Shown piece by piece: positions 32,866 through 57,911 of a stretch of DNA of 57,941 nt. Under the pieces are notes generated by a model that saw only the letters and a program-made list of their open reading frames with translations, was not told the DNA's origin and did not search any database. This DNA comes from Candidatus Colwellbacteria bacterium CG10_big_fil_rev_8_21_14_0_10_42_22. Its GTDB lineage: Bacteria; Patescibacteriota; Minisyncoccia; UBA6257; Colwellbacteraceae. Each line of letters begins with the position of its first letter. Position 1 is the first letter of the stretch. The DNA lies in NCBI GenBank assembly GCA_002773725.1, contig PFAH01000010.1, positions 1 through 57,941 of the forward strand. The letters run 5' to 3'. The position numbers and the translations under genes are program-made.

Positions 32866-32894
32866 TTGACCCCTAAAAAGCTTTTTGCTATGTT
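32866..32894 (+). promoter_or_regulatory. sigma70 promoter of the GC-rich HIT gene
   Basis: TTGACC-17bp-TATGTT with extended -10 TG; GGAGGT SD before ATG 32935. Confidence 0.7.
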
Positions 32895-32934
32895 GCCTGC
32901 CGGAGTACCCTACATCTAGCGCGGAGGTGCCGTA

Positions 32935-33393
32935 ATGGTCGTCAACGATACTCCTGATTCGGGCAAAGGCATTCTCTACAACACAAGATGGGCTGGTGAC
33001 TACAGAGGGAAGCTCGAAGAAGCAGAGAAGAGGGGCGTTTGCATCTTCTGTCTCAAAGAACTCGAAAGGAGTGGGCGGAAGTTTCGACGTCTCGACTCGG
33101 CCATCATGTTCGAGAACGAGTTTCCCTCCAAGGGCGCGAAGATTCACCTGCTCATCGTGTCAGAACGTCACGTGACGAGCCCCGCCGATCTACATCTCCA
33201 CGAGTGGATGGACATACTCAGAATGTTCATTCAGGTAACCGAAGAGATGGGTGTTGATGGAGGAGCGTTGGTAGTTCGTTTCGGCGACTCCGACATCTCT
33301 GGGGCAACTGTTCACCACCTCCATTTCCACCTAGTGGTACCGAAGCTTGACGAGAGGGGTCTGTCAACTCCAGTCGCTTTCTACGTCGGGTAA
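32935..33393 (+). CDS. HIT-family protein (GC-rich, SD-led copy)
   Basis: CIFC zinc motif and HLHFH histidine triad. Confidence 0.85.
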   Translation: MVVNDTPDSGKGILYNTRWAGDYRGKLEEAEKRGVCIFCLKELERSGRKFRRLDSAIMFENEFPSKGAKIHLLIVSERHVTSPADLHLHEWMDILRMFIQVTEEMGVDGGALVVRFGDSDISGATVHHLHFHLVVPKLDERGLSTPVAFYVG

Positions 33394-33404
33394 AGGACCG
33401 ACAA

Positions 33405-33454
33405 CGAACTTCGGCGACCTGAATTGCGAAAGCAATTCGGGTTGCCGAGGTTCG
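33405..33454 (+). other. 23-bp RNA stem with GAAA tetraloop
   Basis: CGAACTTCGGCGACCTGAATTGC-GAAA-GCAATTCGGGTTGCCGAGGTTCG; 20 Watson-Crick and 3 G-U pairs. Confidence 0.8.
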
Positions 33455-33492
33455 AGGTATTATAATTAAGAAACGCTTGTTAAAATATTTAT

Positions 33493-33939
33493 ATGAGCAA
33501 GTCACGTTTTATAAACAAATCTCATGTCCGCACGGGTAACCAAAGCGAGATTATGGACGAAATTGAAAAAGAAGGGGTTTGTCCTTTTTGTGAAGAAAAT
33601 TTAGAACGTTTTCATGGCAAACCGGTAGTTGAAGAAACGCAGTATTGGTCATTATTAGAGGCAAAATGGCCGTATAGCCATGCGCGCGCTCATCTTCTTT
33701 TAGTTGCAAGTCGTCATATGGAAGATATTTCCGAGCTTGAACCCGAAGAGTGGAAAGATATGCTGGAGCTAGCCCAATGGGCATCTAATCAATATAAAAT
33801 AGCCGGTGGTGCCTTGGCGTTAAGGTTTGGTGATTCTAATTTGACGGGGGCAACGGTCCACCATCTACATGCCCACCTCATAGAGCCCGAAGCGGACGAA
33901 GACGGCAAGGCAAAGCTAGTTAATTTTCCTATTGGTTAA
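33493..33939 (+). CDS. HIT-family protein (host-like, leaderless copy)
   Basis: CPFC and HLHAH motifs; TAAAAT 6 nt before ATG. Confidence 0.88.
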   Translation: MSKSRFINKSHVRTGNQSEIMDEIEKEGVCPFCEENLERFHGKPVVEETQYWSLLEAKWPYSHARAHLLLVASRHMEDISELEPEEWKDMLELAQWASNQYKIAGGALALRFGDSNLTGATVHHLHAHLIEPEADEDGKAKLVNFPIG

Positions 33940-36170: not shown

Positions 36171-36223
36171 GTTTGATATAAGCTATACTTCTACTAAACG
36201 GATTATAAGTTAGGATATAAAGC

Positions 36224-36735: not shown

Positions 36736-37161
36736 CTAACCTTCTACTTCAATGCCCATACTTCGAGCAGTGCCTTCGATGATTTTCACAGCTGACTCAA
36801 TCTTGTCAGCATTGAGATCTTCCATTTTCTTTTCAGCAATTTCCTGAATTTGCTTCTTATTCACTTTACCTACCTTCTTTTTATTGGGCTCGCCGGATCC
36901 CTTTTGGATATTGGCTGCCTTACGGAGTAAATCTGATGCAGGTGGAGTTTTTAATCTGAAACTAAAGCTTCTATCTTCATAGACAGTAATTTCGACGGGA
37001 ATAATGTCCCCTCCCATTTCCTTGGTGGCTTCATTAAATTGAGTACAGAAATCCTGAATAGAAAGACCGTGCTGACCCAAAGCGGGCCCGATTGGAGGAG
37101 CTGGGTTTGCCTGTCCGGCACGGATCTGAAGTTTTAACTCTGATTTAATCTTTTTTGCCAT
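36736..37161 (-). CDS. rplK: 50S ribosomal protein L11
   Basis: [18 protein letters not shown] and GTARSMG motifs. Confidence 0.98.
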
Positions 37162-37970: not shown

Positions 37971-38020
37971 ATGCGCTCTAAATAATAGCGAAGGAGTCGA
38001 CTCTTCGCAAGACCAGTCAT

Positions 38021-38055
38021 AAAAGAATGATGCCACGCTGGTTGCGTGGCATCTG
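38021..38055 (-). repeat. 35-bp terminator-type repeat, copy 1
   Basis: Identical to 40408-40442; minus strand GATGCCACGC-AACCA-GCGTGGCATC followed by ATTCTTTT. Confidence 0.9.
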
Positions 38056-38070
38056 TGTGAGGATTTCTTT

Positions 38071-38496
38071 CTAGTCATCCCCACCGAAGAGGTCTTCCAG
38101 GAAGCCAATGATGTGCGGAGTTTCCGGTTCCGACCAGACCGCAATCCAGCCGGAGCGCAAACCCACGGAGGGCTTGTTCCACATCTTGTGCTCGTCCTTG
38201 AGAGCGGCCCAGAAAATGTTTCTGAGAATCTTCCCTTTTTCCTGGAGTTCATGAGCCTTGATAGCCAATCTCTCGGCTTGCTGAGTGTCCTGTGTGAAAT
38301 TTGCCTCAACGTTGATTTCCATTGAGGTCTTTATCCATCTAATGGCCGTCAGGTAGAGACGCCTCAGCTCATCACTGACTTCGCCGACAACATGGTCCCT
38401 ATCAGGATTCACATCGACCATGGGCTCAAACGGATTACCGGGATTGAGTTCAACGAGCTCCAACTCACTTGCGAGCAAATCTACCCAAATTGACAC
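38071..38496 (-). CDS. GC-rich orphan hypothetical protein
   Basis: 141 aa; GTG start after GGGGAG SD; upstream TTGACG. Confidence 0.8.
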   Translation of the reverse strand: MSIWVDLLASELELVELNPGNPFEPMVDVNPDRDHVVGEVSDELRRLYLTAIRWIKTSMEINVEANFTQDTQQAERLAIKAHELQEKGKILRNIFWAALKDEHKMWNKPSVGLRSGWIAVWSEPETPHIIGFLEDLFGGDD

Positions 38497-38563
38497 AATA
38501 CTCCCCTTTTTGTCTATGTCCTACTTTTAGGATTACAGATTTTATAAGTATTCGTCAAGTACT

Positions 38564-38911
38564 TTACCAATCCCGAGCCACGTTCGGCTCCCCCTTTGCG
38601 CCTACCAATCTCTTGATATCTTGTCCGCTAAACTTTTCGTTCAAAATATCTACGGCATAGACATTGTCTAGATACGTTGAAAAGACGTGCGCCTCTCTGC
38701 CTATATCTGCATCAATATACCCAATAACGTAATCTCTCGGTTTACTACTTTCCCTGTCGTCCCGTGGATAAATATCATACGGGGATATTTTTCTAATGGC
38801 CCACTGTTCTGTGGTTTCTTTCTTGAAAGAGATTTCCACCTTATTTCTACCCTGAATGGCTTTGATAATTTTCTCTTTAATGGCGGTTTTGTCGTCTATC
38901 ATTGAGCCCAT
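38564..38911 (-). CDS. Stand-alone WYL-like domain protein
   Basis: IIKAIQ..KVEISF....R.ISPYDI pattern; TATGAT 6 nt before ATG. Confidence 0.6.
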   Translation of the reverse strand: MGSMIDDKTAIKEKIIKAIQGRNKVEISFKKETTEQWAIRKISPYDIYPRDDRESSKPRDYVIGYIDADIGREAHVFSTYLDNVYAVDILNEKFSGQDIKRLVGAKGEPNVARDW

Positions 38912-38950
38912 GTTTAAATCATATCAAATAAAGCTTTTATATAAGATACA

Positions 38951-38979
38951 TTGACGGTTTACTACGTTTATTGTATTAA
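38951..38979 (+). promoter_or_regulatory. sigma70 promoter of the 39012-39573 unit
   Basis: TTGACG-17bp-TATTAA. Confidence 0.7.
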
Positions 38980-39011
38980 ATCTCTAGACCCTTTACTCGA
39001 AAGGAAGATGT

Positions 39012-39338
39012 ATGCCCTTCGTAACTATTCGTCGCAAAGAAGATGCACTCACTGACGGATCCGAGGGAACTCTCTCGGCGCTCTGCGACTTGTTAGAGGA
39101 GAAGTTGCCCTCGATTGTGGGTATGGGTGGCGGTATCGAATTCGACACCCCCTTCTTCGACAAATCGGCTCGTCACGTCCCCGACGTGCGGGTGGAAGTC
39201 GAAGGCCACGCTTATCTCGAACGCGACGAAGATCGGATTGCTAGCCAACTGCGGACCGCCATCGACTCTTCGGGAATCGTTCCCGAAGATGTTTTGTTGC
39301 AAATCGCGGTGAAACTCCCCCGCCTCGGCGTTGCTTAA
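39012..39338 (+). CDS. GC-rich orphan, possible tautomerase-superfamily fold
   Basis: Begins MPFVTI (Pro-1 after Met removal); beta-alpha-beta pattern repeated. Confidence 0.7.
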   Translation: MPFVTIRRKEDALTDGSEGTLSALCDLLEEKLPSIVGMGGGIEFDTPFFDKSARHVPDVRVEVEGHAYLERDEDRIASQLRTAIDSSGIVPEDVLLQIAVKLPRLGVA

Positions 39339-39360
39339 CAGCAACGAGGAGAAACTCCCT

Positions 39361-39573
39361 ATGGGTAAGAAGTTCAGGAAGATTTCTCTAAACGTCGACC
39401 CAGACGTTTATAAGGAACTACAAGCTCGAGGTGACATCCGCAACGTCTCGGATTACATCAGGAAGAGGATGGATCCCAAATGGGGCAACTTCAATCTCAG
39501 CGAGGGTGAACGATTGTTCGTCGTTGACCAAGACGGCAACCCTCTTCGCGAGATTGTTTTCCTCTATCTCTAA
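39361..39573 (+). CDS. GC-rich orphan, ribbon-helix-helix-like
   Basis: RKISLNVDPDVYKEL....NVSDYIRK; GAGGAG SD; start trimmed to MGKKF. Confidence 0.65.
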   Translation: MGKKFRKISLNVDPDVYKELQARGDIRNVSDYIRKRMDPKWGNFNLSEGERLFVVDQDGNPLREIVFLYL

Positions 39574-39706
39574 CCCCGTTCCCCGAACAAAGCAGTACGG
39601 CTTCGTGAGGGGGCGGGGTCGTATTGTTTTTGAATATTCTAATCTCCCACTGGACGACGCTAGAATTTATCTGTTATACATATAAAACCGAAGAGAGGAG
39701 TATTGC

Positions 39707-40066
39707 ATGGCCTTTGACACGACTAGGTTCACCGAAGAGTCCATCCTCGAAACCGCTGACATCTACAGGCGAATTGAGGCCCTCCAACAGGAATCAGCCA
39801 ATCGTCACACAGATGAGTTGAAGCTCCATAGTGGAGGATTCGGTGATTCGCCAGATCTTCAGGAACTGATTCACTTCGTCATCAAGACCCTTGAGGGAAA
39901 TGGTCTTGAACCATCTTTCGAGATGGTGATGATGATTCTCTGGGAAAGAGGTCTATACAAGGGAACCTTCAGGAGTGCGTACTCGAGGATGCTGGACCAA
40001 GGGCTTCTCGGCACACACGGAGATTGCATCCTCCACATCCCCATACTCGAGGAGGTGAGAAGGTGA
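39707..40066 (+). CDS. GC-rich orphan hypothetical protein
   Basis: 119 aa; GAGGAG SD. Confidence 0.75.
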   Translation: MAFDTTRFTEESILETADIYRRIEALQQESANRHTDELKLHSGGFGDSPDLQELIHFVIKTLEGNGLEPSFEMVMMILWERGLYKGTFRSAYSRMLDQGLLGTHGDCILHIPILEEVRR

Positions 40067-40314
40067 CCACCAACACAAAGATGGACGAAGTAATCGAATT
40101 CGTTGCCTCTGTGGCAACCGACGTTGTCAACGCATACAGCGGTGATCCTGTTGGTTGGGCAGATCTTGAGATCGATCTGACCATATGGCTCATGAGGGAG
40201 ACGGATCTTGGACCACTCGATGCTGCAGATGTTGCCAATAGAAGCATCTGGCACGGCATCAACACCGGGAGGATGAACTTCCACCTCGGAGACCTCAGTC
40301 CTGCTACAACCTAA
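40063..40314 (+). CDS. GC-rich orphan hypothetical protein
   Basis: GTG start overlaps the upstream stop; AGGAGGTGA SD. Confidence 0.7.
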   Translation: MTTNTKMDEVIEFVASVATDVVNAYSGDPVGWADLEIDLTIWLMRETDLGPLDAADVANRSIWHGINTGRMNFHLGDLSPATT

Positions 40315-40365
40315 CACAACCCCCATCGCCAACGAAGATTCCCTCTTCGGCTCGGCGTCGGGGGT

Positions 40366-40405
40366 TTCTTCGTTTTTAGATATTCAAAAACTACTAATCC
40401 TCCAC
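40366..40405 (+). repeat. Conserved post-terminator motif, copy A
   Basis: TTCTTCGTTTTTAGATATTCAAAAACTACTAATCCTCCAC; similar to 50463-50502 and 39624-39650. Confidence 0.75.
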
Positions 40406-40407
40406 CA

Positions 40408-40442
40408 AAAAGAATGATGCCACGCTGGTTGCGTGGCATCTG
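40408..40442 (-). repeat. 35-bp terminator-type repeat, copy 2
   Basis: Identical to 38021-38055. Confidence 0.9.
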
Positions 40443-40451
40443 AGTGGGCTC

Positions 40452-40694
40452 CTATGAGGCCGTGGTAACGACAATGGGCTCTGGATCTATCACTCGCATA
40501 CATCCCCAAGGCGCGAACGCCAGTCTCGAATAGTTTCCCGAAACAAGGCTGGCGTTTGCAAAAGAGATGTCGCCGGAAGTGAATCCATCCGCCTCCAATG
40601 CTTCAATCTCGTCGAGAATGGGAAACGGTTCATCGCCGTAGAGCTCCACAATCTTCGCCAGAATCTTGTTGATAGTTGCCAGGTCATGAGCCAT
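40452..40694 (-). CDS. GC-rich orphan hypothetical protein
   Basis: 80 aa from MAHDL; GGAGG SD. Confidence 0.7.
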   Translation of the reverse strand: MAHDLATINKILAKIVELYGDEPFPILDEIEALEADGFTSGDISFANASLVSGNYSRLAFAPWGCMRVIDPEPIVVTTAS

Positions 40695-40826
40695 AGCTTT
40701 CCTCCAAGGTGCAATCTTCTTATTCAAACTATACACAAAAAAAGCGGTATACCGCAAAACTTTACTAATCTCTCGTCAAAAAATCCCATGTGCACCATCC
40801 CATCTTTGACGGAGGGATTCTTTGAA

Positions 40827-41255
40827 TTAATCTAGATAATCTCTTACTTCTTTTAATACGGCTCTCGCTTCTTCGTGCGTTAATATGTCTTGAGCTTCAT
40901 CAAATGAGACCCACTTTGATTCTTCTATCTCTTCTGTCGGGTCTGGGGCAATCTCTTTATCAATAGTCGAAACAATTCCCACAAAATACGTAACCGTTTT
41001 ATCGTACATGTTGCCATCTCTAGGAAATGAATATTCTTCTACAAATTTATTGCCAAAATCAATCTCAACCTCGCTAATTCCAGTTTCCTCCAAAAGCTCT
41101 CTTCGCGCGGTTTGTTCAATCGATTCCCCTTCTTCTGCATGACCTTTAGGGAAAGCCCAGTGGTCACCTTTGTGTTTGATAATGAGGATTTTTGTTGATT
41201 CATCCCCTTTCTTAAACACTGGGATGACTCCCATTGATTCGTCTTTGATAGTCAT
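40827..41255 (-). CDS. NUDIX hydrolase (Ap4A hydrolase-like)
   Basis: HWAFPKGH..EGES..QTARRELLEETG Nudix box. Confidence 0.92.
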   Translation of the reverse strand: MTIKDESMGVIPVFKKGDESTKILIIKHKGDHWAFPKGHAEEGESIEQTARRELLEETGISEVEIDFGNKFVEEYSFPRDGNMYDKTVTYFVGIVSTIDKEIAPDPTEEIEESKWVSFDEAQDILTHEEARAVLKEVRDYLD

Positions 41256-41308
41256 GCCTAAATTCTACACCCAAAAACGTGAAAACCGCCTTTGAGCGGT
41301 TAATCTGC

Positions 41309-41341
41309 GTAGAGGGAGAAGCTCGATGCTTCTCCCTCTAC
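41309..41341 (-). terminator. 14-bp perfect hairpin downstream of ORF 41349-41708
   Basis: GTAGAGGGAGAAGC-TCGAT-GCTTCTCCCTCTAC; second hairpin at 41282-41301. Confidence 0.7.
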
Positions 41342-41348
41342 GACTTCC

Positions 41349-41708
41349 CTAGCTGCTAGTACCCACCCTCTCTCCAGGGTAGATGAACAGCATCACCTGG
41401 GCGATGCCGAGAAGGAAGATCCCAACGACGACGAACGCTGCCGAGAGTTCCTCCACTGCAATCGAGGCAACGAAGGTTGCGGAGGGCAACCCCAGAAGCA
41501 CGAATGTCGCCGAAGAGCGAAGTAGTTGGTCGTCCTCCTTCGACACAATCCCGAGAAAGGCCCACGCGAGGACAATGACGAAAATCACCGTCAAATCCCA
41601 CGCGAGAAAGTCCTCTCCGTTCGCGAATGCTTCCTTCGCTCCCGAAGGGAGGCATCCAATGAACACCATCGCCACGAAAAAGACGAGCCTGTACGTCAAC
41701 GAGAACAT
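41349..41708 (-). CDS. GC-rich orphan membrane protein (~4 TM)
   Basis: Hydrophobic 119 aa; GGGAGGT SD. Confidence 0.75.
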   Translation of the reverse strand: MFSLTYRLVFFVAMVFIGCLPSGAKEAFANGEDFLAWDLTVIFVIVLAWAFLGIVSKEDDQLLRSSATFVLLGLPSATFVASIAVEELSAAFVVVGIFLLGIAQVMLFIYPGERVGTSS

Positions 41709-41739
41709 TTTGACCTCCCGGTCATTGGTCTAGGAACTG

Positions 41740-41793
41740 GATTTCAACTCCTATCCCAAACCACATTTATAATCTGGGATAGGAGTTGAAATC
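41740..41793. repeat. Perfect 19-bp inverted repeat
   Basis: GATTTCAACTCCTATCCCA-16nt-TGGGATAGGAGTTGAAATC. Confidence 0.9.
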
Positions 41794-41824
41794 AAGTGTA
41801 GATAGCTTAAAGAACTGTGAATGC

Positions 41825-41853
41825 ATTATACCACGATATACTTCATTCGTCAA
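41825..41853 (-). promoter_or_regulatory. Consensus sigma70 promoter
   Basis: TTGACG-17bp-TATAAT with extended -10 TG. Confidence 0.8.
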
Positions 41854-41997
41854 TATCAACTCCAAATCCCCCGTCAAAAAAAATCATTTTTCAAAAATTT
41901 AGAAATCTAATGAATAATCAAATTATTCAATGATAAAGAAAATCCAGTTATTGGAGCTGAATTATTTTGTTTCTGAGAAAATGTGTGGAGTGAACCC

Positions 41998-43017
41998 CTA
42001 ATCCACCCCATAAGGCCTATAAACCTCAGGGTCTATGGTCCTCTCAAAACAAGCCCTCCCCTCCTCATGATCCCAAGAATCATTCGTACCTCCCGGCCAT
42101 GGATAAGAAATCGCCATATCTTCTATGTACCCTCCTTTCCCGCCCATCGGCACTATGCCTCCCCCGCGATAGTACTCCACCCAACCTTCCGGCATTGGCT
42201 TAGTAAAGGTGGCGCAAAGCTCAAAAGTAAGGGGCTTAAGGGCATTGTATTCATATGTCCTACCCTTTTCAAATTCCGGATCAACCGGTAGAGAATATCC
42301 CTGCAGAGGGTCCTTTAGGTCATTTAATGTTTTCGGCAACACTTCTTTATTCTGCCAATAACTCACTATCTGCCATTGAATATTCTGTAAATCCTCAATA
42401 CGTCTTTGATCAAGACGAAGCGCCCTCTGCTCCATGGGCGATCCGATTATCATAAAAGCTCCTATCACGGCTGATGTCACAAACACCACCGCAAGAGTTA
42501 GGCACAAAATGCGAACTGCTTTCCTTTTTTCTGTGTTTTTAAGCTCATAGAGGTAATAAAGACCCACCACTAGTGCTGTTACCAAGGTCGCTGCCACCTT
42601 AAGTAAAAAGCGAGTTGTAATCTCTCCCTCCACGAAATAGCGCACCAAAGTGATTAGGTCAACAACTATGGTAATAGTTGCTAGAAAGACAATGAGATAG
42701 AGCATCCATTTTTTTATCACTAAATCAACTCGCCCCAACCTGCCCTTGAGCATTTTGGTCCAAAAGTAAGAAGCCAGAATAAAAACAGGGAAAATAACTA
42801 AGAGTGTCGCAAGCGCCGACCGCATAGCAGACAGCTCGTATGGATTGTATCCATATTGATAATCCGCATTTAGGACATCTGGAAACTTTTTATTCAAAAC
42901 CCCAAAAACAACATTTAGAAATGAAGTAACGGTGGTAATGAGCCATACAAGAATAAAAAGCGAAGTAAAGAAAAACTTCGGGCTCAACTTCGGCTGATGT
43001 TCTACCGCTTCTTCCAT
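41998..43017 (-). CDS. Membrane protein, DUF5671-like, with C-terminal pseudopilin-like domain
   Basis: Five TM segments followed by RIEDLQNIQ..LP..L..L..P.DP...YEY....FELCATF. Confidence 0.7.
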   Translation of the reverse strand: MEEAVEHQPKLSPKFFFTSLFILVWLITTVTSFLNVVFGVLNKKFPDVLNADYQYGYNPYELSAMRSALATLLVIFPVFILASYFWTKMLKGRLGRVDLVIKKWMLYLIVFLATITIVVDLITLVRYFVEGEITTRFLLKVAATLVTALVVGLYYLYELKNTEKRKAVRILCLTLAVVFVTSAVIGAFMIIGSPMEQRALRLDQRRIEDLQNIQWQIVSYWQNKEVLPKTLNDLKDPLQGYSLPVDPEFEKGRTYEYNALKPLTFELCATFTKPMPEGWVEYYRGGGIVPMGGKGGYIEDMAISYPWPGGTNDSWDHEEGRACFERTIDPEVYRPYGVD

Positions 43018-43048
43018 ATACCTACTTATTATATCCCACTTCGCTAAA

Positions 43049-43068
43049 CCTGCCTACCGGCAGGCAGG
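43049..43068. repeat. 20-bp REP-like palindrome nested in a CTTCGCTAAA/GCTACG element
   Basis: Reverse complement of 17909-17928; flanks CTTCGCTAAA and GCTACGAGG. Confidence 0.85.
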
Positions 43069-43086
43069 GCTACGAGGGACAGGCAC

Positions 43087-44079
43087 CTAGAACCACGTGG
43101 TATCAGATAAACCAAAATGCCCTGCTCCTGCAGTTTTTTGGTATTGAGACTTCTTAAGATCTAGAAGTTTGATGATTCCTTGCGGGGTTAAATCGTATTC
43201 GGTGATTGTTTCCTTTCTCTTTTCCACCCGCCCCTGCGGGTCGAGGTAAATCAATTCTGCCTCTGCAGAGACAGGATCTACTACCCCGATCACATACGCT
43301 AGATGAACAACCACTTCCTTAGCGTTTCTCTCTTTTAGTAAATCTACCGCGATCTTGCGTGCCATGTAGGCGCCACTTCTATCCACTTTTGTTGGATCCT
43401 TACCTGAAAAACTTCCGCCCCCAACCGGCACATATGGTCCGTAATTATCAATAATTATCTTTCTGCCCGATAAACCTGAATCCGCCTCAAAACCGCCTAT
43501 ATGCCACTCTCCTGCGGGATTTATGTGATACTTGTCCGCTTTTATGAATTCACGTACAAGCGTCTCTAAATCAACTGTTTTGGTGTTTTGGAAACTAGCC
43601 ACAACGTCTGTCACTTTGTTTTTGTCAATCGTCACCTGTGTTTTGCCATCGAATGGATATCTCTTATATATATCCCTACACAAATTTCTCGCTAGTTCAT
43701 ATCCATACGGCATGAAGTTTTCCGTTTCGCTACACGCATAGCCCACCATAATGCCCTGATCACCCGCTCCGCCCGTATCTACTCCACGAGCAATCTCGGG
43801 GCTTTGTTTGGAAATAAATACTTCTACGTCGTAACTCGCTCTCGCTCCGCTCGGTCGAGACGGATCCGTCTCTACAACTTCGCGGGCGATTTTGGGGATA
43901 TCTACTTCGGCGCTACTTGTCACTTCCCCCGTGACTTTGATTTTCCCATGCCCCCCCATCACCTCTACTGCTACCCGTGCCTCCGGATCTTTTTCTAAAT
44001 AGGCATCCAAAATACTATCGGCTATTTGGTCGCAGATTTTATCCGGGTGTTTGGGTGAAACGAATTCGTATGTTTGCAT
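43087..44079 (-). CDS. metK: S-adenosylmethionine synthetase
   Basis: HPDKICDQ, GAGDQG, SGLSGRKIIIDNYG and GGGSFSGKDPTKVDRSGAY motifs. Confidence 0.96.
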   Translation of the reverse strand: MQTYEFVSPKHPDKICDQIADSILDAYLEKDPEARVAVEVMGGHGKIKVTGEVTSSAEVDIPKIAREVVETDPSRPSGARASYDVEVFISKQSPEIARGVDTGGAGDQGIMVGYACSETENFMPYGYELARNLCRDIYKRYPFDGKTQVTIDKNKVTDVVASFQNTKTVDLETLVREFIKADKYHINPAGEWHIGGFEADSGLSGRKIIIDNYGPYVPVGGGSFSGKDPTKVDRSGAYMARKIAVDLLKERNAKEVVVHLAYVIGVVDPVSAEAELIYLDPQGRVEKRKETITEYDLTPQGIIKLLDLKKSQYQKTAGAGHFGLSDTTWF

Positions 44080-44269
44080 ATTTGTTTTTGTTTTATGTTT
44101 TTTATTTAGTGCATGCGCAGGCAATGCATCTTGATGAACATCCCGCATGGCTTTGCGCTCAGTTCAGGCAAAGCCCGAGGGCGAAGAAATTTTTGTCGCT
44201 GAAACAAAAATATTCTGTTTCTAAGAGATATATCGCTTGCGTATTTTTCGGCAAATAAAATGCCGACAT

Positions 44270-44400: not shown

Positions 44401-44448
44401 CGCAATATTCAATTATCTTTCTACTTTATATTATTTTGTCTTGTTCTT

Positions 44449-49751: not shown

Positions 49752-49823
49752 CGCGGGGAAGTGTAACGGTTGCACGTGAGGCTCATAACCTTAAGGCAGC
49801 GGGTTCGACTCCCGCCCCCGCAA
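49752..49823 (+). tRNA. Initiator-type tRNA-Met(CAT), non-canonical
   Basis: C1xA72 mismatch; anticodon arm TGAGG-CTCATAA-CCTTA; GCGGG-TTCGACT-CCCGC T-arm. Confidence 0.88.
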
Positions 49824-49829
49824 CAAAGC

Positions 49830-49858
49830 TTGACTTATCGCTTATTTTGTGATATAAG
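49830..49858 (+). promoter_or_regulatory. sigma70 promoter directly after the tRNA-fMet 3' end
   Basis: TTGACT-17bp-TATAAG with extended -10 TG. Confidence 0.7.
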
Positions 49859-49902
49859 GGGGCTTTTTTGTATAAAACTGGCGGAAAAAAACTGGAGGAG
49901 AG

Positions 49903-50370
49903 ATGACGTACGTACGAATGGCTGTGCGGCCCTTCAGGAAGCTTAGCGATTACATCAACAAGCTTCCCTTGGCCGGTAAACTGGCCATTGCCCCCGTGGT
50001 GTTTAGGGCGTACACAGCTCCCAAGGGCCAACGCCTGAGTCGTTTCCTGATGGCCGTCGCCCTCCTGTTGGTGATGATCGTTGGTCATTACCGCCAGGTA
50101 TTGCTCGGCTTGGAGCTCTACACGAACGGCGCTCCGTGGGCACAGAGCATCGGCTTGATCTACGCCGCGGTTAACATCCTCGTGGTGTACACGCAGGCAG
50201 TGATCTTGATAAGGGTGCTGGCACGCATCAGAAGGCTCGCCAGGATGCGGAACACAACCACCAGGCGCACCTACAAGGGCTTCAGTCCGGCACACAAGGT
50301 AGCCTGCTTTGCAGTCACGCTCGGTGGGCAAATCGTATTCCTCCTCTCACAGACCATCACAGGTTTGTAG
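49903..50370 (+). CDS. GC-rich orphan membrane protein
   Basis: Basic, ~3 TM segments; GGAGG SD. Confidence 0.75.
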   Translation: MTYVRMAVRPFRKLSDYINKLPLAGKLAIAPVVFRAYTAPKGQRLSRFLMAVALLLVMIVGHYRQVLLGLELYTNGAPWAQSIGLIYAAVNILVVYTQAVILIRVLARIRRLARMRNTTTRRTYKGFSPAHKVACFAVTLGGQIVFLLSQTITGL

Positions 50371-50462
50371 GATAGGATGTATACGACCCGAGAGGGCCTA
50401 ACGCCGCTGACGGAAAGCGAAGAGGCATAAGTCAAAACCTCTTCCCTACTTACTGAGGCGGC

Positions 50463-50502
50463 TTCTTCGTTTTTAGGTATTCAAAATCACTAATTCTCCC
50501 AC
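50463..50502 (+). repeat. Conserved post-terminator motif, copy B
   Basis: TTCTTCGTTTTTAGGTATTCAAAATCACTAATTCTCCCAC. Confidence 0.75.
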
Positions 50503-50541
50503 TATTTGGTTCCATCCGGATCTTACCCCCGCAACCATTAT

Positions 50542-52565: not shown

Positions 52566-52594
52566 TTGACTACTCCTATATTTTGTGGTATAAT
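52566..52594 (+). promoter_or_regulatory. Consensus sigma70 promoter
   Basis: TTGACT-17bp-TATAAT with extended -10 TG. Confidence 0.8.
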
Positions 52595-52621
52595 ACCGTT
52601 GGTACACTGAAAAGAGGTGAA

Positions 52622-52903
52622 ATGATCAGTGCGCTGAGCTCGATTCTGAGCTCTCTGTTGGTACTCTGGGTCATGGGGCTCGGATTCGCCGTCATGTTCG
52701 GACGGCACCAGCAGTACAACGCGGCGTGGGGGCGCATCATCCGGCGGTTCTTCCGCTGGGTGGGACGTACCATCCGCCACATTGTAAGAGGAATCTGGAA
52801 CTGGCTCCGACCGCACCTTATCAGAGGTCTGCGGAGGGTCGGTCGGTGGCTCCATGCTCGTGCCCGTCAGGGTTGGGCTTGGCTTCGCACCAGATTCGCA
52901 TAG
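52622..52903 (+). CDS. GC-rich orphan: one TM plus Arg/Trp-rich amphipathic tail
   Basis: GAGGTGA SD; start at MISAL. Confidence 0.7.
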   Translation: MISALSSILSSLLVLWVMGLGFAVMFGRHQQYNAAWGRIIRRFFRWVGRTIRHIVRGIWNWLRPHLIRGLRRVGRWLHARARQGWAWLRTRFA

Positions 52904-52906
52904 GTT

Positions 52907-52980
52907 ACCGCCCACCTATTCTCCAAAAAAGGGCGGTTTTACTTTTTTAAAAACAAAAGACGTCCCACTGGACGTCTTTT
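52907..52980. terminator. Two terminators between convergent genes
   Basis: ACCGCCC/GGGCGGT plus TTT, and AAAAGACGTCC-CACT-GGACGTCTTTT. Confidence 0.75.
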
Positions 52981-53002: not shown

Positions 53003-54592
53003 CTACCCCTTCGTATTGGAGCTCAAGTAGATTTGGGACGTCTGATAACCATAACCCCCTCCTTTGGCTGGACCGATGACATACATCTGATCCATCTTAG
53101 AACTCGTAGCTAATCCCCAAGCGATGCTTTGCAAACTCACGTTATAAAAGCCCGCTCCACTTTTAGGAGTCACAGAAACTGTAAAGGTGAATCTAACGGT
53201 CTGGTTCGCTCCAATAAATACTGTATTCTCAGCCCCCTTGCCCGCATTTGATGTTACGGCGTGGGTCTCAATTATGTCAGTGCCGCCATGTATACCAAAA
53301 CCAAAAGCCGTACTGACAGAAGCTGATTCACCAACGGCCGAAACGTCCATTACTATCTCGAAGATACCTTGATCGGGGTAAATGTCTTCTCCTGGATTTA
53401 TAGAAGCTCCCTTCGTTACAACGGCAGTCGCGCTCACCAAATTGGCTTCAATTGAAGCTCTGCTAGGTATTTCTACAGACACGGTTGCAGATGTCGATTC
53501 CCCTCCATCCTTCGTGAAACAATCCAAGCGGAAACTAGCGGTGCCAGAGGTCTCTGGCTTAAAGATATGTGAGCCGGATGCTGGTAGTTCTGCTTTCCCA
53601 GTTGAATAGCCCATCCTTTCTACAAATTCACAGTATTCAGTATTGCTACTTTCCCAATAAGCAATAGCTTGGGGTGGATTTTCGAGATTATTCATGATGG
53701 AGTCCCTATTAATCACCACCTCAAAATAAGTTATGGCTGGCTTGGTCGTATTAGGTCCACCAATTTCTGCAAGAATGGCCCGATACAAAGTCGCTGTTTC
53801 CCTAACAACCACAACGGCGGACTTGGTATCTGAAACCAATGTCTGATAGAGGGACTTTCCTTGTTTCCAGACAGCCCTTGCCTCTTCTAATACACCTGCG
53901 ACTCGTAATTGATCGAAGACATTAAGCGCAAGTTCATATCTAGAGACCGCTACGCCTATCGCCTTATCGGAGGCGTCCACCAAATCTGTTAGGTCTTTGT
54001 CTTGAATGCCATTATTAGACATCCCCGGCCTTATGGTGCCGGAAACAATATTATCCAACTTGCCTATCTTTTCGGCCATTAAGTCGATTTTTATGAAACC
54101 GACAGCCCTATTCATTTTGGTTGCCCGAAACAAAATAAGCTCGTTACGTAGAACGGATAATTCTTTCGCATCCACTGTCTTCTCAATAGATCTTCTTAGA
54201 GTAGCCACCTCTTTAATCAATTCCCTAACTCTTTCCAACGTGCTCGCATATTCAATTGGTGCCATTTTGATGGGTTCCAATTGAGACACCTTAATCTCAA
54301 CTATCTTTAGAGAAAGTTCTGACATTTCGGCCAAAAGAAGTAACTGTTCTTTGACGCTACTATTAAGCATGCCTTTAGTTTCATCGTTTTTGTCAGCTTT
54401 CCAGCTTTGTCTAAGACTTTTGATGTCGTTGCCTAAACTCTTATATTCAGACGTTATCTCTTTTAAGGATGCCTGCATATCCTCTAAAGAATTAGTGTTA
54501 ACAGCACTTTGAATGCTCGCCAACAAGCTACCAGGCATCACAAGCCCCGCCATTAACACTCCTATAGTGATATTTTTGGTAATGTTTTTCAT
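53003..54592 (-). CDS. Large secreted/surface hypothetical protein
   Basis: Signal peptide, long coiled coil, beta-rich C-terminal domains. Confidence 0.75.
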   Translation of the reverse strand: MKNITKNITIGVLMAGLVMPGSLLASIQSAVNTNSLEDMQASLKEITSEYKSLGNDIKSLRQSWKADKNDETKGMLNSSVKEQLLLLAEMSELSLKIVEIKVSQLEPIKMAPIEYASTLERVRELIKEVATLRRSIEKTVDAKELSVLRNELILFRATKMNRAVGFIKIDLMAEKIGKLDNIVSGTIRPGMSNNGIQDKDLTDLVDASDKAIGVAVSRYELALNVFDQLRVAGVLEEARAVWKQGKSLYQTLVSDTKSAVVVVRETATLYRAILAEIGGPNTTKPAITYFEVVINRDSIMNNLENPPQAIAYWESSNTEYCEFVERMGYSTGKAELPASGSHIFKPETSGTASFRLDCFTKDGGESTSATVSVEIPSRASIEANLVSATAVVTKGASINPGEDIYPDQGIFEIVMDVSAVGESASVSTAFGFGIHGGTDIIETHAVTSNAGKGAENTVFIGANQTVRFTFTVSVTPKSGAGFYNVSLQSIAWGLATSSKMDQMYVIGPAKGGGYGYQTSQIYLSSNTKG

Positions 54593-54613
54593 AGAATTGG
54601 TTTTAACTGATTT

Positions 54614-54817: not shown

Positions 54818-54881
54818 TGATTTAAGTATAAATCAATCACCCCATAGAAACATCTAAGTGTTAATATCCTTATTGATTATC

Positions 54882-57203
54882 TTATGAAGGCGGGATGAGC
54901 TTCATATTAAACGGCTTAGTAGTTTTACCATTGACCAACATCCTGACATACGCCTGAAAGTTATCCATCTCAATCAGGTCTTTCTGTTCAATCTTGGGGG
55001 CAAATTGTTTTTCCAGAAATTCTGCATCTTCTGCTCCCACTCTGAAGGCCATCATGGAGCCAACGTTGCCAAAGACCGCGTCCCTGATGTCGTCTTGAAG
55101 TTGCTGAATAAACTGGTGGGCGATAATCAGATTGAGTTTGTATTTCCTGGCCTCTGAAAGAATAGTAGCGATGCTGGGGGTGGTAATGTTTTGGAATTCA
55201 TCCATGTATAGATAAAAATCTTTACGAGTTCCTTCTTCGCTATCAACGCGCGAAAGAGCGGCCATTAAAAGTTTACCGACTACAACTAATCCGATAAGGT
55301 TGGAATTTAGATCTCCCAATTTCCCTTTTGAAAGATTAACTAAAATTATTTTCTGATTATCCATGGCATCCCTAAAGTTGATGGTACTTTTTTGCTGGCT
55401 AATAACGGGACGCAAAAACTCATCCGCCACAAAGCCGTTAATTTTAGAAGTGATGTAGGGAGCAATGTTTGAAAGAGATGCCTCTCCTTTGGCCTTCTCC
55501 GCCTCCCCTTCCCAAAAACGCTTAACTACTTCGTTTGTCTCGCGACTTAATTTATCTGCTCTGTATTCGCTGTCCGTTAGGACCTTTGGAACATCGAGAA
55601 GAGTCGGTATTTCGTGTGCATAGTCGTCTAAAAGCAAAAGGACGGAGTTCCTGAAATATTGATCAAAAACAGGACCCATGGTCTCTGCTAAAAAGAGCTT
55701 ATGGAATATACCTAAAAGTTCATTAACCACTAGCGTCTTCTGTTCGGGTCTCTTTGGGTCAATATCCAACATATTAAGGCCGAATGATCTTGATAAGTCG
55801 CCCGGATCAAACCAGACAATGTCTTGTTTCCTATTCTCGGGCACAATTGAGAGAGCATATTGAGCTAATTCTCCATGAGGGTCTAGAACGGCTAGCCCTT
55901 CACCATTTTCGATATCTTGTCTAATCATGTTTTTGAAAAAGCTCGTCTTACCGGTACCAGTTTGACCGACAACGTATAGATGCCTGCGTCTGTCGTCTCT
56001 ACTCATTCTAATAACGCTTTTTTTACCCCTGAATTCGTTTTCTCCTAAAACAACTCCTTCACTAGCAATCTCTGATGGGGGCTCAAGAATCTTGCCCTTA
56101 AGCGTCTTATACCCAGGTACACCAGCTTGAGATAAGGATAGGTGGAATAGTCCCACCAATTCTTTTGTGGAGATTAAGCTGGCTTTTTTGGGTTCAGGGA
56201 TTCTGAATGAATAATTAAAAACAAATTTGCGCATACTCCGAGAGCGAATCCGTTTTGTGTAAAATGAATTGCCAACGGGATTGCTAAACTGCTGATAGGC
56301 GGACTCCATTTCGCTAATGATTTGCTCGGCTCTCGTTTCGCTCTCAGCCGATACCACCAAACGAATGTTAGTTTGGAAGTGATGTTTGGTAATTTTTTCC
56401 TGAAGTTCCTTGATAAAGGCCTCGTCCGCAACTGTGCTCGGCTCTATTTCCTTTTGAGGTTGAGGGTTGCCGGATGCATCCCGAGCGGGAGTAGATAAGA
56501 TATTAGTTACTTCTCTTACTTTTTCACCTTTAACACGAGAGAGGGCGTTTGAAAAATCGTGACCCTTTTGCATCTCCTTTATAATCTTTTTGGCCATCTC
56601 TCTTTGTTTTCGATAGTCGGCGGGGCGAACAATGTATTGAACGGATGCCCCTTCCCCTTCTTCGGCGATTTTGCTCATAGCGGTAACAATGCTCGACAAC
56701 GGGTCTGCACTCATATTGTCGTACGTATTGAGAGATAGGAGTGGGGTGTTGCTAGTCCTGAGCCATGCACCTAAGCTAAATCCTCCGGGGGTAAAGATAT
56801 TATAGTCCTCGGTTTTCTTGACTTCAGCATAAGGGAATACGCCATGAATCTGTTTCTCAAGAATTCCCTCTATAGAGCGAGGCACGGCTATATAGCTCAT
56901 AATCTTATCTCCCTTGTGGTGCACCGCTAACTCCAGCGAAGCATAAGGTTGGCCATAAATTAGGGCTTTGAATCCACGCGCCCTCAAGCTCATCAAAGAG
57001 GTTAGGAACTGCTCCATGTCTTTCATAACTTTGTGTTCCTCGCCCTTCTCACTACTTTCATCTGCTTTAGGTAAGATAACTGAATATAAGGACGTGTTTA
57101 GGGAGCGCACTATAGAACCCTGTTTTCGGTGTTTTAATATAAAAATGGCCGATACAATAACCAACACAAGGAATAGAAGAAATAGAATTATGGTGGCGTT
57201 CAT
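54882..57203 (-). CDS. VirD4/TrwB/HerA-like P-loop ATPase
   Basis: RRRHLYVVGQTGTGKT, DPHGE, LYMDEFQN, EARKY and AHQFIQQL motifs; N-terminal TM. Confidence 0.88.
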   Translation of the reverse strand: MNATIILFLLFLVLVIVSAIFILKHRKQGSIVRSLNTSLYSVILPKADESSEKGEEHKVMKDMEQFLTSLMSLRARGFKALIYGQPYASLELAVHHKGDKIMSYIAVPRSIEGILEKQIHGVFPYAEVKKTEDYNIFTPGGFSLGAWLRTSNTPLLSLNTYDNMSADPLSSIVTAMSKIAEEGEGASVQYIVRPADYRKQREMAKKIIKEMQKGHDFSNALSRVKGEKVREVTNILSTPARDASGNPQPQKEIEPSTVADEAFIKELQEKITKHHFQTNIRLVVSAESETRAEQIISEMESAYQQFSNPVGNSFYTKRIRSRSMRKFVFNYSFRIPEPKKASLISTKELVGLFHLSLSQAGVPGYKTLKGKILEPPSEIASEGVVLGENEFRGKKSVIRMSRDDRRRHLYVVGQTGTGKTSFFKNMIRQDIENGEGLAVLDPHGELAQYALSIVPENRKQDIVWFDPGDLSRSFGLNMLDIDPKRPEQKTLVVNELLGIFHKLFLAETMGPVFDQYFRNSVLLLLDDYAHEIPTLLDVPKVLTDSEYRADKLSRETNEVVKRFWEGEAEKAKGEASLSNIAPYITSKINGFVADEFLRPVISQQKSTINFRDAMDNQKIILVNLSKGKLGDLNSNLIGLVVVGKLLMAALSRVDSEEGTRKDFYLYMDEFQNITTPSIATILSEARKYKLNLIIAHQFIQQLQDDIRDAVFGNVGSMMAFRVGAEDAEFLEKQFAPKIEQKDLIEMDNFQAYVRMLVNGKTTKPFNMKLIPPS

Positions 57204-57619
57204 TACTTAATCTGTTTGATTTTACCGCTTTGCACTAATTGGTTGAAAAGCTTGTCTACAATAGCATCGTGGAAAGCGTCTAAGATGGCGGGGTCGTTAA
57301 TATCCCGAGCTTTTTTGATAGCGTCATCTAAATCTTTAGAAACAGCAAGGTTGATAAGTTCATCCACTTGGGGCTTAAGCTTGGGGTCTTCATACGATGG
57401 GGGCTCTGCTCCATAAGGCCTATCATCGCTAGGTTTAGAAGTGGGTTGAGGCGCGCTCCCCTCTTTACCAAGACGCTCACCAACTACTTGGTGGAGAGCG
57501 TCTCGCTCATGTTGTCCTTCAATAAAAGTTGTCTCCGGAGAAGAAACTCTTTCTTGAACTTTAAAAGAAAGATTATCCAAATGAGGTGTTAATCCCGGCT
57601 GTTCTTGTATTTCTGTCAT
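57203..57619 (-). CDS. Conserved hypothetical protein upstream of the ATPase
   Basis: DPAILDAFHDAIVD motif; stop overlaps the ATPase start; TATAAT 7 nt before ATG. Confidence 0.7.
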   Translation of the reverse strand: MTEIQEQPGLTPHLDNLSFKVQERVSSPETTFIEGQHERDALHQVVGERLGKEGSAPQPTSKPSDDRPYGAEPPSYEDPKLKPQVDELINLAVSKDLDDAIKKARDINDPAILDAFHDAIVDKLFNQLVQSGKIKQIK

Positions 57620-57670
57620 ATATAAAATTATAGCCCCTAAGGGGCTATTTTTCATCTAATGTGTTGGATA

Positions 57671-57701
57671 GTGGGGGCTTTGTTTTCACTCGCGCCCCCA
57701 C
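57671..57701 (-). terminator. Hairpin downstream of ORF 57702-57911
   Basis: GTGGGGGC/GCCCCCAC; second hairpin TAGCCCC-TAA-GGGGCTA at 57631-57647. Confidence 0.65.
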
Positions 57702-57911
57702 TTACGAGCTTTCGTAATTGCGTGCATTGAGACGCCTGCTCTCTGCTGTTATCTCTTTGGGCTTACAACAGATAGTGGTGCCGTGCGTTTTCAGAACATC
57801 TAATGTTTCAGCGTCTGGCATCTTGCCACACATGGAACACTCCAGCGTGTCCAATCTCCAGCAGTGCTGAACGAAAGATCCTCTTTCGCTAAAGCAGATT
57901 TTCTCTGCCAT
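57702..57911 (-). CDS. Small Cys-rich orphan protein
   Basis: CxxC plus CC; perfect AAGGAGGTGA SD. Confidence 0.65.
   Translation of the reverse strand: MAEKICFSERGSFVQHCWRLDTLECSMCGKMPDAETLDVLKTHGTTICCKPKEITAESRRLNARNYESS

Follow-up and report, generated by a model that had tools for sequence, protein, structure and literature searches.

GC-rich, Shine–Dalgarno-led small gene units amongst the Shine–Dalgarno-less genes of a Colwellbacteria-like Parcubacteria genome: candidate horizontally acquired modules

The locus and its gene units

Genomes of the Candidate Phyla Radiation (CPR) are tiny and rich in unexplained small proteins, and almost nothing is known of their mobile elements or of how they gain genes. 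Here we describe a class of small GC-rich genes, led by Shine–Dalgarno (SD) sequences, which lie scattered amongst SD-less core genes on contig PFAH01000010.1 of Candidatus Colwellbacteria bacterium CG10_big_fil_rev_8_21_14_0_10_42_22. The window, by which we mean the whole stretch of 57,941 nt (58 kb) that was analysed, belongs to a Parcubacteria (CPR) genome near Candidatus Colwellbacteria: its MetK is 70% identical to that of JAQULQ01 (L006) and 62% identical to that of GWA2_46_10 (L007). The sequence in view comprised the 58-kb window and ~1.7 kb beyond its end, to which fetched contigs of relatives (numbered with the prefix L) were added; the closest metagenome relatives reach a GyrB identity of 89%, within an overall range of 62–89% for the relatives compared. 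The window has an overall GC content of 42.5%. Its first 32.8 kb hold housekeeping genes (dnaJ/K, grpE, recR, dnaB, cysS, mraW, Mur ligase, EF-Tu, S2, dnaE, thrS, gatB and others), and the native genes of the second part are those for thyA, DHFR, L11, NusG, SecE, NUDIX, a DUF5671 protein, MetK, GyrB, PheST, tRNA-Met, a phosphoribosyltransferase, membrane and secreted proteins and a VirD4-like ATPase. Chimeric assembly, a possible source of such an arrangement, is ruled out, since contigs assembled independently by ENA, JGI and Logan from several samples all show the arrangement with 100% identity.

Between 32.9 and 57.9 kb, 11 open reading frames (ORFs) make up nine transcription units, designated A–I. 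They are listed below with GC content, GC content at third codon positions (GC3), protein length in amino acids (aa) and, for each SD, the duplex energy with an anti-SD sequence (dG, kcal/mol).

32866–33447, + strand: unit A; promoter TTGACC-17-TATGTT at 32866–32894, SD GGAGGTG at 32923–32929 (dG -13.1), ORF 32935–33393 (HIT2; 152 aa; GC 0.53, GC3 0.62)
~33412–33447, + strand: 3' end of unit A, a hairpin without a U-tract
38021–38558, - strand: unit B; promoter TTGACG... at 38558–38530, SD GGGGAG (dG -8.3), GTG start, ORF 38071–38496 (141-aa orphan; GC3 0.63), terminator T1a at 38021–38059
38951–39650, + strand: unit C, two genes; promoter at 38951–38979, ORF 39012–39338 (108 aa; dG -5.6) and, 22 nt further on, ORF 39361–39573 (70 aa, basic; dG -8.9), GC3 0.61 in both
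39574–39631, + strand: terminator of unit C, T2-like, with a 3' tail that aligns with T2
39651–40406, + strand: unit D, two genes overlapping by 4 nt; ORF 39707–40066 (119 aa; dG -8.6) and ORF 40063–40314 (83 aa; GTG start; SD GGAGGTGA, dG -16.1)
40331–40406, + strand: terminator module T2 of unit D
40408–40790, - strand: unit E; terminator T1b at 40408–40446, ORF 40452–40694 (80 aa, acidic), SD GGAGG (dG -9.3), upstream TTTTTTGACG block at 40767–40783
41272–41853, - strand: unit F; promoter TTGACG-17-TATAAT with TG at 41853–41825 (11/12), SD GGGAGGT (dG -11.5), ORF 41349–41708 (119 aa; GC3 0.73), two 3' hairpins at 41272–41341
49830–50541, + strand: unit G; promoter TTGACT-17-TATAAG at 49830–49858, SD GGAGGAG at 49894–49900, ORF 49903–50370 (155 aa; GC3 0.76), T2 module at 50413–50502
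52566–52950, + strand: unit H; promoter TTGACT-17-TATAAT with TG at 52566–52594 (11/12), SD GAGGTG at 52614–52619 (dG -9.0), ORF 52622–52903 (93 aa; GC 0.61, GC3 0.72), terminator at 52905–52948
57668–57941, - strand: unit I; terminator at 57671–57701, ORF 57702–57911 (69 aa, 6 Cys), SD AAGGAGGTGA at 57918–57927 (dG -15.9); its upstream TTGACG promoter and the terminator of the preceding gene lie past the window end and are visible in L038

Composition, codon usage and expression signals

The 11 unit ORFs have a GC content of 0.47–0.61 and a GC3 of 0.54–0.76, as against 0.36–0.46 and 0.30–0.47 in 46 core genes (Mann–Whitney p=3e-7), and an unsupervised 150-nt GC scan recovers the same GC-rich segments. 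The initial annotation of this DNA had described the units as GC-richer than the core; its spot counts (36/60, 35/60 and 23/60) are exact and all the ORFs that it named lie where it had placed them. The units also have a codon dialect of their own (TTC 0.80, TAC 0.85, AAC 0.71, AAG 0.75, CTC 0.45) that is not found in core genes, EF-Tu included. A leave-one-out log-likelihood ratio against core codon usage is positive in 10 of the 11 and negative in all core genes; unit I is the weakest member by composition (GC 0.48, ratio slightly negative). The amino-acid composition of the products has less Lys and more Arg, and GC at first codon positions (GC1) is shifted as well as GC3. Native codon optimisation was rejected as a source of the dialect because EF-Tu (GC3 0.33) and the ribosomal genes have a low GC3. 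The suggestion that the units form a separate mutational class is likewise disfavoured, since GC1 and amino-acid composition are shifted too and the anciently diverged HIT2 carries the dialect.

The second signature is translational. Anti-SD duplex energy averages -10.5 kcal/mol upstream of the units and -2.3 upstream of core genes (p=1.4e-6), the latter matching random 20-mers (-2.6), and the core upstream regions in the loci of relatives are likewise SD-less. Energies at or below -8 are found for 10 of the 11 unit ORFs, as against 8.4% of GC-matched 20-mers taken from inside units; the binomial tail for at least 9 of 11 is 1e-8, with the caveat that unit start codons were chosen partly with the SD in view. 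Both the mostly strong SD-like sites of the units and the SD-less state of the core had thus been correctly recognised at the outset. An SD lies 4–10 nt before every chosen unit start, and a motif-first scan placed every SD-led ORF outside the core genes at 32.9–57.9 kb, with none in the first 32.8 kb.

The transcription signals are of more uneven strength. The pattern TTGAC-N17-19-TAnnnN lies 56–145 nt upstream of the first gene in six of eight units, in agreement with the claim that most units have a near-consensus promoter. Promoter-like sites overall are not enriched over shuffled sequence, and the strict form TTGAC-N18-TAnnnT has seven matches in the whole window, three of which belong to units. 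Mutual similarity amongst the promoters of 49903, 52622 and the L014 unit equals the null maximum (score 17) and so does not go beyond consensus. A terminator of its own follows eight of the nine units, as had been noted, the hairpin after 32935–33393 having no U-tract. Amongst core genes, the -10 box ends 4–14 nt before the ATG in 13 of 52, and those at operon starts tend to be leaderless; the unit leaders have a -10 box 27–145 nt upstream together with an SD. The units therefore differ from the SD-less and often leaderless core in composition, codon use, and transcription and translation architecture at once and, in line with one part of the initial interpretation, form a coherent, non-native compositional and expression class in GC, GC3, dialect, SD and leader.

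The anti-SD motif has been reported missing in about half of Parcubacteria, largely in a group that lacks uL1 (PMC9297842). In the window (36736–37161) and in the relatives L013, L015, L017 and L033, rplK (L11) is not followed by rplA (L1), and because anti-SD loss goes with uL1 loss in that group, the organism may itself be without an anti-SD. Neither the window nor any of the fetched loci contains a 16S rRNA gene, and avoidance of SD-like motifs in core genes, taken as a proxy for a working anti-SD, gave no signal (GGAGG observed/expected 0.99, at low power). If the anti-SD is absent, the SDs would serve as a built-in clock for foreign origin; if it is present, the units would form a separate translational class.

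Three genes outside the units deserve mention for their starts. The start codons of EF-Tu and of the Mur ligase follow tRNA-Tyr and tRNA-Thr at distances of 1 and 3 nt, respectively (within 16444–16522 and 17757–17843, - strand), and tRNA 3' processing at these places would leave leaderless mRNAs, in a manner resembling tRNA punctuation. The large secreted protein encoded at 53003–54592 (- strand) has an in-frame ATG at 54553 with AGGAG 5 nt before it, which is the start picked by other gene callers (516 aa); with this start it would be a native-GC gene having an SD.

Shared terminator modules

Two 3' modules recur after units with unrelated products. T1 (GATGCCACGCAACCAGCGTGGCATCATTCTTTT) follows two of them, T1a (38021–38059) and T1b (40408–40446) being 97% identical with a chance expectation of 0 for the pattern; it consists of a perfect 10-bp stem, a 5-nt loop and a U-tract, and the T1a hairpin has an energy of -19.7 kcal/mol (z -7.5). 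T2 (TTCTTCGTTTTTAGrTATTCAAAA..CTAATyCTCC) follows units 40063 and 49903 and, in part, 39361, giving two to three copies in the window. The copy at 40331–40406 is 90% identical to 50457–50486, the similarity reaching CTAATyCTCC, and its structure is a long stem with the base CGAAGA/TCTTCG followed by TTTTT. All five T1/T2 copies follow units and none follows a core gene. In L006, a T1 hairpin (GATGCCACACACCCAGTGTGGCATCACTATTTTT) with a compensatory CG-to-TA stem change stands after a 120-aa GC-rich SD-led orphan, and a tail homologous to T2 is present in L014. The early observation that unrelated units share 3' sequence thus extends across species, and it follows that the non-coding ends are better conserved, within and between species, than the ORFs they flank. 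In structure both T1 and T2 are ordinary intrinsic terminators. A reading of them as attC sites of an integron was rejected on inspection (no attC covariance model was applied), as they are plain stems with U-tracts and without R''/R' core sites. The units had been proposed to be assembled from standard promoter and terminator modules; terminator ends are shared across species, and the similarity of the promoters reaches only the null maximum.

A further non-coding structure lies in the leader of unit F, between promoter and SD, where a near-perfect 25-bp hairpin (41736–41797, - strand; -40.4 kcal/mol, z -9.7) might serve as an operator or for processing, or might be a small inverted-repeat element. 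No Rfam family matched any of the units.

Products of the units

The products comprise a HIT hydrolase, three small membrane proteins with four, three and one transmembrane (TM)-like segments, a protein with 6 Cys, and further small proteins of which several are acidic and one is basic. The four hydrophobic, TM-like segments belong to the protein of unit F, which is identical in six contigs, all with the same genomic context. The unit G product has three TM-like segments and an isoelectric point (pI) of 11.5, and that of unit H a single TM segment with an Arg/Trp-rich tail (pI 12). No pairwise protein similarity was found amongst the units, so that their description as a family is apt for composition and regulatory scaffolds and not for the proteins. 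All copies within the species are identical and offer no variation for a dN/dS (nonsynonymous to synonymous substitution) estimate, the sole divergent stretch (L039) lying in the neighbouring DUF333 gene.

HIT2 is the one product with a recognisable family. Its ORF scores 31 bits against Pfam PF01230 (HIT; cut-off 21.5) with an intact HxHxH in the motif VHHLHFHLV, and 594 relatives fall below E=1e-3. As a real enzyme family member with this motif intact, it indicates that the pool includes genuine old genes. It is 40% identical to the adjacent core HIT (33493–33939), and its best match amongst 1.84e9 representative proteins is also only 40% identical. The possibility that HIT2 is a recoded, recent tandem duplicate of its neighbour was rejected because it is equally close to its best database matches, and the neighbour has better matches elsewhere. 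The other ten ORFs have no significant match in Pfam, PHROGs, NCBIfam or PADLOC; the term 'orphan', applied at first to all the units, therefore holds for these ten and fails for 32935, a HIT-family protein. A known phage, insertion sequence (IS) or defence system is likewise not found in PHROG, NCBIfam, PADLOC or, HIT aside, Pfam.

Units C and D, with two small adjacent or overlapping genes per operon, have a layout like that of type II toxin–antitoxin systems, and 39361–39573 looks, as an impression only, like a ribbon–helix–helix protein; no significant toxin or antitoxin match was obtained in Pfam, NCBIfam, PADLOC or the PDB sequences searched. Single-sequence AlphaFold2 models were mediocre for two orphans (predicted local distance difference test, pLDDT, about 60), the unit D model being all-helical at pLDDT 62 and that of unit B containing one confident part, a helical hairpin with pLDDT 83–94 over residues 50–90.

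Comparison with related genomes

Presence or absence of the units could be compared at three sites covered by fetched contigs of relatives (GyrB 62–89% identical), and at all three the units are absent; they are not syntenic in these relatives. The order GyrB–SecE–NusG–L11...GatB is conserved in seven related contigs (GyrB 62–87% identical), in which gyrB and secE are adjacent with a gap of 32–80 nt. In the window this gap has become 6.5 kb (37971–44448) and holds seven GC-rich ORFs together with native-GC genes: metK with its S-adenosylmethionine (SAM) riboswitch, DUF5671, NUDIX and hyp38911. Homology upstream of secE resumes exactly at the secE promoter, adjoining the terminator of unit B (38071–38496). 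Unit H (52622) is absent downstream of the orthologue of memb51146, a membrane protein, in L014. A tblastn search of the units against the loci of relatives gave no match for any of them.

The relatives carry small SD-led orphans of their own. In L014 this is a 158-aa lipoprotein with a lipobox (GC 0.57, GC3 0.69) whose dialect is that of the window units and unlike that of the L014 core, and L006 has two GC-rich SD-led orphan units. Origin from GC-richer sister lineages, represented by the core genes of L013 and L014, was considered and rejected: those core genes are SD-less and do not have the dialect.

The tRNA-Met integration site

One unit, G, stands at the tRNA-Met gene.

49752–49827, + strand: tRNA-Met (CAT) region, detected by ARAGORN and Rfam; tRNA at 49752–49824, 16-nt repeat CCGCCCCCGCAACAAA at 49812–49827 as an att-like junction

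The unit G promoter begins 3 nt past this repeat, which overlaps the 3' end of the tRNA, and the same is seen in L014 (GyrB 89%), where the position is occupied by a different GC-rich SD-led orphan, the unrelated lipoprotein ORF. The window and L014 are homologous over the tRNA and the promoter as far as the -10/transcription start site (TSS) region, and again over the terminator tail and a distal flank of ~40 nt. This flank (~50503–50541, TTTGGTTCCATCCGGATCTTACCCCCGCAACCA) ends in ...CCCCCGCAACCA, as does the intact tRNA-Met of L013; it resembles a T-arm, acceptor and CCA and reads like a decayed copy of the tRNA-Met 3' end. In L001 (1761–1881) and L036 (8144–8264), which come from a population otherwise 100% identical, a 121-bp extra segment follows tRNA-Met, placed between window positions 49812 and 49827 with exact 16-bp repeats on both sides, and carries a small terminator hairpin and a T-arm-like fragment. 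Contigs from other samples end on the 16-nt repeat (L002 and L003 at 49827, L037 at 49812), and other relatives have other cargo after tRNA-Met. The structure is what one would classically expect where site-specific integration and deletion have occurred serially at a tRNA gene; the far-side repeat is degenerate (11/15). In L013, tRNA-Met is followed by a small GIY-YIG-type ORF (212–472, - strand) and then by a GC-rich, hairpin-dense non-coding stretch (1–210).

Origin of the units

That the units are real as a class is statistically solid. The reading we favour, which we hold to be somewhat better than evenly balanced, is that they are accessory modules similar to phage morons, gained horizontally from a mobile gene pool that uses SDs and has not been sampled; the safest classification is that of horizontally acquired, self-contained gene modules that contrast with an SD-less, leaderless host and have scaffolds common across species. 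Each unit would be a complete expression unit of foreign style, in which a sigma-70 promoter and a canonical SD in the leader precede one or two small ORFs that end at an intrinsic terminator, and would derive from one compositionally coherent, GC-richer, SD-using pool, presumably an unsampled family of mobile elements (phage, plasmid or integrative element) in Colwellbacteria-like Parcubacteria. The modules would have entered intergenic hot spots in a host genome with SD-less and frequently leaderless genes of its own. Site-specific integration into the tRNA-Met 3' end appears to have brought in at least one of them; newer insertions there would push older ones outward and recombination between att repeats would delete material. 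The others probably entered by illegitimate or short-homology recombination. The predicted cargo comprises one HIT hydrolase, a gene pair of toxin–antitoxin-like architecture and small proteins that are membrane-bound, secreted, rich in Cys or acidic; it most likely acts at the envelope of the cell or in conflicts between elements or in interactions with a host. The sequence data establish the composition and SD class, the restriction to a lineage, the scaffolds common to several species and the polymorphism at the tRNA site, whereas we infer who the donor was, how units away from the tRNA were integrated, and the expression and function of the genes.

Several results weigh against acquisition from such a pool. 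Integrase, transposase, replication and phage genes were not found in the window or the fetched flanks by Pfam and PHROG scans, and T1 has no match in IMG/VR viral contigs, with one likely chance match for T2. Apart from unit G, the units are flanked by no direct repeats or target-site duplications, and even at tRNA-Met the distal tRNA-like copy matches the 16-mer at only 11 of 15 positions, more weakly still in L014. The small orphan ORFs of L030 (654–914, + strand, and 8661–8906, - strand) have very strong SDs (AAGGGAGGTGG, AAAGGAGGTGG) with native GC and codon usage, so that SD and GC-richness are not always linked in the clade. Finally, and as the main weakness, no donor was found. HIT2 has its nearest match at 40% in the 1.84e9 representatives, and two orphans (units B and D) as well as HIT2 returned only self matches in 5.8e9 proteins; that search, being word-based and having missed even the adjacent HIT, rules out no more than relatives that are fairly close. 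A composition that has not been ameliorated implies that transfer was recent, and a sampled donor should then be represented by a close homologue; 15 billion proteins contain none. Given this puzzle of the missing donor, delivery as cassettes, uptake of free DNA and a native class are kept alive as explanations.

The closest of these to the initial annotation supposes a dedicated cassette system, in which a recombinase encoded elsewhere or on a helper element swaps expression cassettes with standard ends (a promoter module, a T1/T2 terminator module and a tRNA-derived att) and arbitrary GC-rich cargo, like integron cassettes or the integrase-less satellites of elements that target tRNA genes. 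The window/L014 swap at tRNA-Met, which runs from just after the -10/TSS to the terminator T-tract between a homologous promoter and distal flank, is what such exchange would leave. So are the 3' modules conserved across species next to unrelated ORFs, the near-identity of T1a and T1b (97%) in one genome, the 121-bp mini-insert between att repeats and the placing of all five T1/T2 copies after units. However, the swap concerns two alleles of one site only, no recombinase domain or reverse transcriptase was found in the window (nor any recombinase in the fetched loci of the same genome), and T1 and T2 are plain terminators without attC-like R''/R' boxes. The units are moreover unarrayed, in both orientations and interleaved with native genes; no repeats or target-site duplications mark their borders save the tRNA-type repeats at one site, and promoter similarity barely exceeds that of a consensus extended -10 (score 17, the null maximum). 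Dedicated machinery of this sort is therefore not supported and seems unlikely, so that the initial reading of a novel cassette system is borne out only in part. We are equally doubtful of an undescribed cassette-type delivery system in Colwellbacteria-like Parcubacteria, with unrelated GC-rich orphan ORFs exchanged at fixed hot spots, such as the tRNA-Met 3' end, by a recombinase encoded elsewhere and within a scaffold of extended -10 promoter, strong-SD leader and T1/T2 ends. Were it true, the SD would give the units a translation mode apart from that of the leaderless, SD-less host genes or, should the host lack an anti-SD, would show that they were made for a different ribosome. Import of DNA through competence machinery is presumed for these bacteria, and the units might instead stem from direct uptake of environmental or host DNA, the donor being an SD-using organism of ~55% GC, possibly the host, with illegitimate recombination and no mobile element. 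The lack of mobility genes fits this, as do the canonical promoters, SDs and terminators; a single dialect would suit one donor species, whose repeated terminators could explain T1 and T2. We nevertheless think it improbable: fragments taken at random would seldom span a whole unit from promoter to terminator in nine cases out of nine, the repeats at the tRNA site point to site-specific recombination, and the source metagenomes are in the protein collection searched, in which three units have no donor copies.

A native, fast-evolving expression class of lineage-specific genes, kept GC-rich, SD-led and leadered for another translation mode (for example conditional or privileged initiation), would fit with the absence of any known donor. 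It would account for the recurrence of the pattern in three related species, the canonical SD spacing in all units and the SD-led orphans of native composition in L030. Yet the units are non-syntenic in relatives, their dialect is unlike that of EF-Tu and the ribosomal protein genes, GC1 and amino acids are shifted and the tRNA-Met structure indicates insertion, whilst Parcubacteria that lack uL1 are reportedly often without an anti-SD (PMC9297842) and L11 in this clade is not followed by L1; we regard a native class as quite improbable. Least credible is that the units are not genes at all and that GC-rich non-coding stretches have yielded long ORFs through a scarcity of stop codons. Long antisense ORFs do occur in the same segments, for example 49783–50331 (- strand, 182 aa), and the single-sequence structure models are mediocre. 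The chosen frames nonetheless follow GC3>GC1>GC2, an SD precedes each start by 4–10 nt, the ORFs fill the promoter-to-terminator interval, and the HIT domain is intact; with the TM-like segments, the L014 lipobox and the lack of Rfam matches, a non-coding artefact is unlikely, and the possibility is a very slight one. If the units are indeed acquired modules, three signatures could be used to recognise recent gene gain: an SD and leader on an SD-less, leaderless background, the codon dialect, and shared terminator modules. The tRNA-Met hot spot is polymorphic within the population, and T1, T2 and the att motifs offer leads to the unsampled donor pool.

Resemblance to known systems

Phage morons are independent transcription units added to phage genomes (PMC3594210). 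The present units resemble them in several ways: each has one small gene or two under a promoter and terminator of its own, differs from its neighbours in GC content, stands out as an addition in comparison with syntenic relatives, and often encodes a membrane-associated protein or one of unknown function. They differ in that they lie between bacterial housekeeping genes (gatB, secE-nusG-rplK, metK, gyrB, pheST, tRNA-Met) and not in a prophage, have no significant PHROG match and no phage genes nearby, and depart from the host in translation-initiation mode as well. The tycheposon islands of Prochlorococcus are tRNA-associated islands built by serial integration (bioRxiv 10.1101/2020.12.28.424599). 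Here too a streamlined genome has cargo beside a full-length tRNA, what resembles a partial tRNA copy on the far side, the newest insert nearest the tRNA and cargo that varies between close relatives, and remnants without an integrase occur. In contrast to such islands, a tRNA association is found for a single one of the nine units, whose insert measures ~0.7 kb and carries one gene; neither a tyrosine recombinase nor a replication module was seen, and the far-side copy is degenerate.

Integron cassettes and clusters of attC sites lacking integron-integrases (CALINs) share with the units the small, mostly orphan ORFs followed by a conserved hairpin 3' element, and some cassettes (toxin–antitoxin) carry promoters. 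Their attC sites are imperfect palindromes of 55–140 nt with R'' RYYYAAC, R' GTTRRRY and extrahelical bases, whereas the elements here are short perfect stems with U-tracts; a Pfam scan of the ORFs gave no intI, no attI was found, and the neighbours of the units are all housekeeping or hypothetical genes. Integron arrays are also co-oriented and mostly promoterless, in contrast to units on both strands that are interleaved with native-GC genes and mostly have their own promoters. REP/BIME palindromes, which are short and GC-rich, are found repeatedly behind unrelated genes and may function as terminators; T1 and T2 are likewise short GC-rich palindromes after unrelated genes. Unlike REP/BIME elements and miniature inverted-repeat transposable elements (MITEs), they are present in two (T1) and two to three (T2) copies in 58 kb, all after units and none after core genes, with no flanking duplications and no RAYT-type transposase seen. 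Finally, SD-poor Bacteroidetes keep a few SD-led genes (cited in PMC9723584), and the window resembles such SD-poor bacteria in an SD-less core with a small minority of strong SDs. There, however, the minority is a conserved autoregulated ribosomal gene, and here it is lineage-specific, compositionally foreign and orphan.

Other features of the window

Downstream of dnaJ, positions 1–40 and 90–129 at the left end of the window form a 40-nt direct repeat (ACCCTCGGGAAACAATAATTATTTTATTGTATTACCGGGG, 98% identical). In the segment 17759–17957 (- strand), 29 nt from the 5' part of tRNA-Tyr occur a second time as an exact copy (17929–17957 = 17821–17849) upstream of the real tRNA, followed by a hairpin (17900–17931) that resembles the terminator after metK (43046–43077); together they look like a pseudo-tRNA or an insertion remnant. 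The 300-nt metK leader holds a SAM-I riboswitch (RF00162) at 44269–44401 (- strand), which scores 42.1 bits (E=3e-7) against a gathering score of 44.4 and thus falls below a gathering-threshold scan. The window GyrB is free of an insertion of ~1.2–1.3 kb that is found at the same residue (~458) in the GyrB of L019 (4756–6029), L033 (11308–12581), L030 (11011–12284) and L024 (1762–2938), and which looks like an intein. Beyond the window end at 57941 (L038 102–1553, L039 1–618), there follows a gene for a secreted protein of 483 aa that has DUF333 and two Cys-rich repeats. The 5' and central part of this gene has diverged in L039, with 30 mismatches within ~100 nt followed by 100% identity, which could be due to variability of a surface protein or to an assembly variant induced by the repeats.

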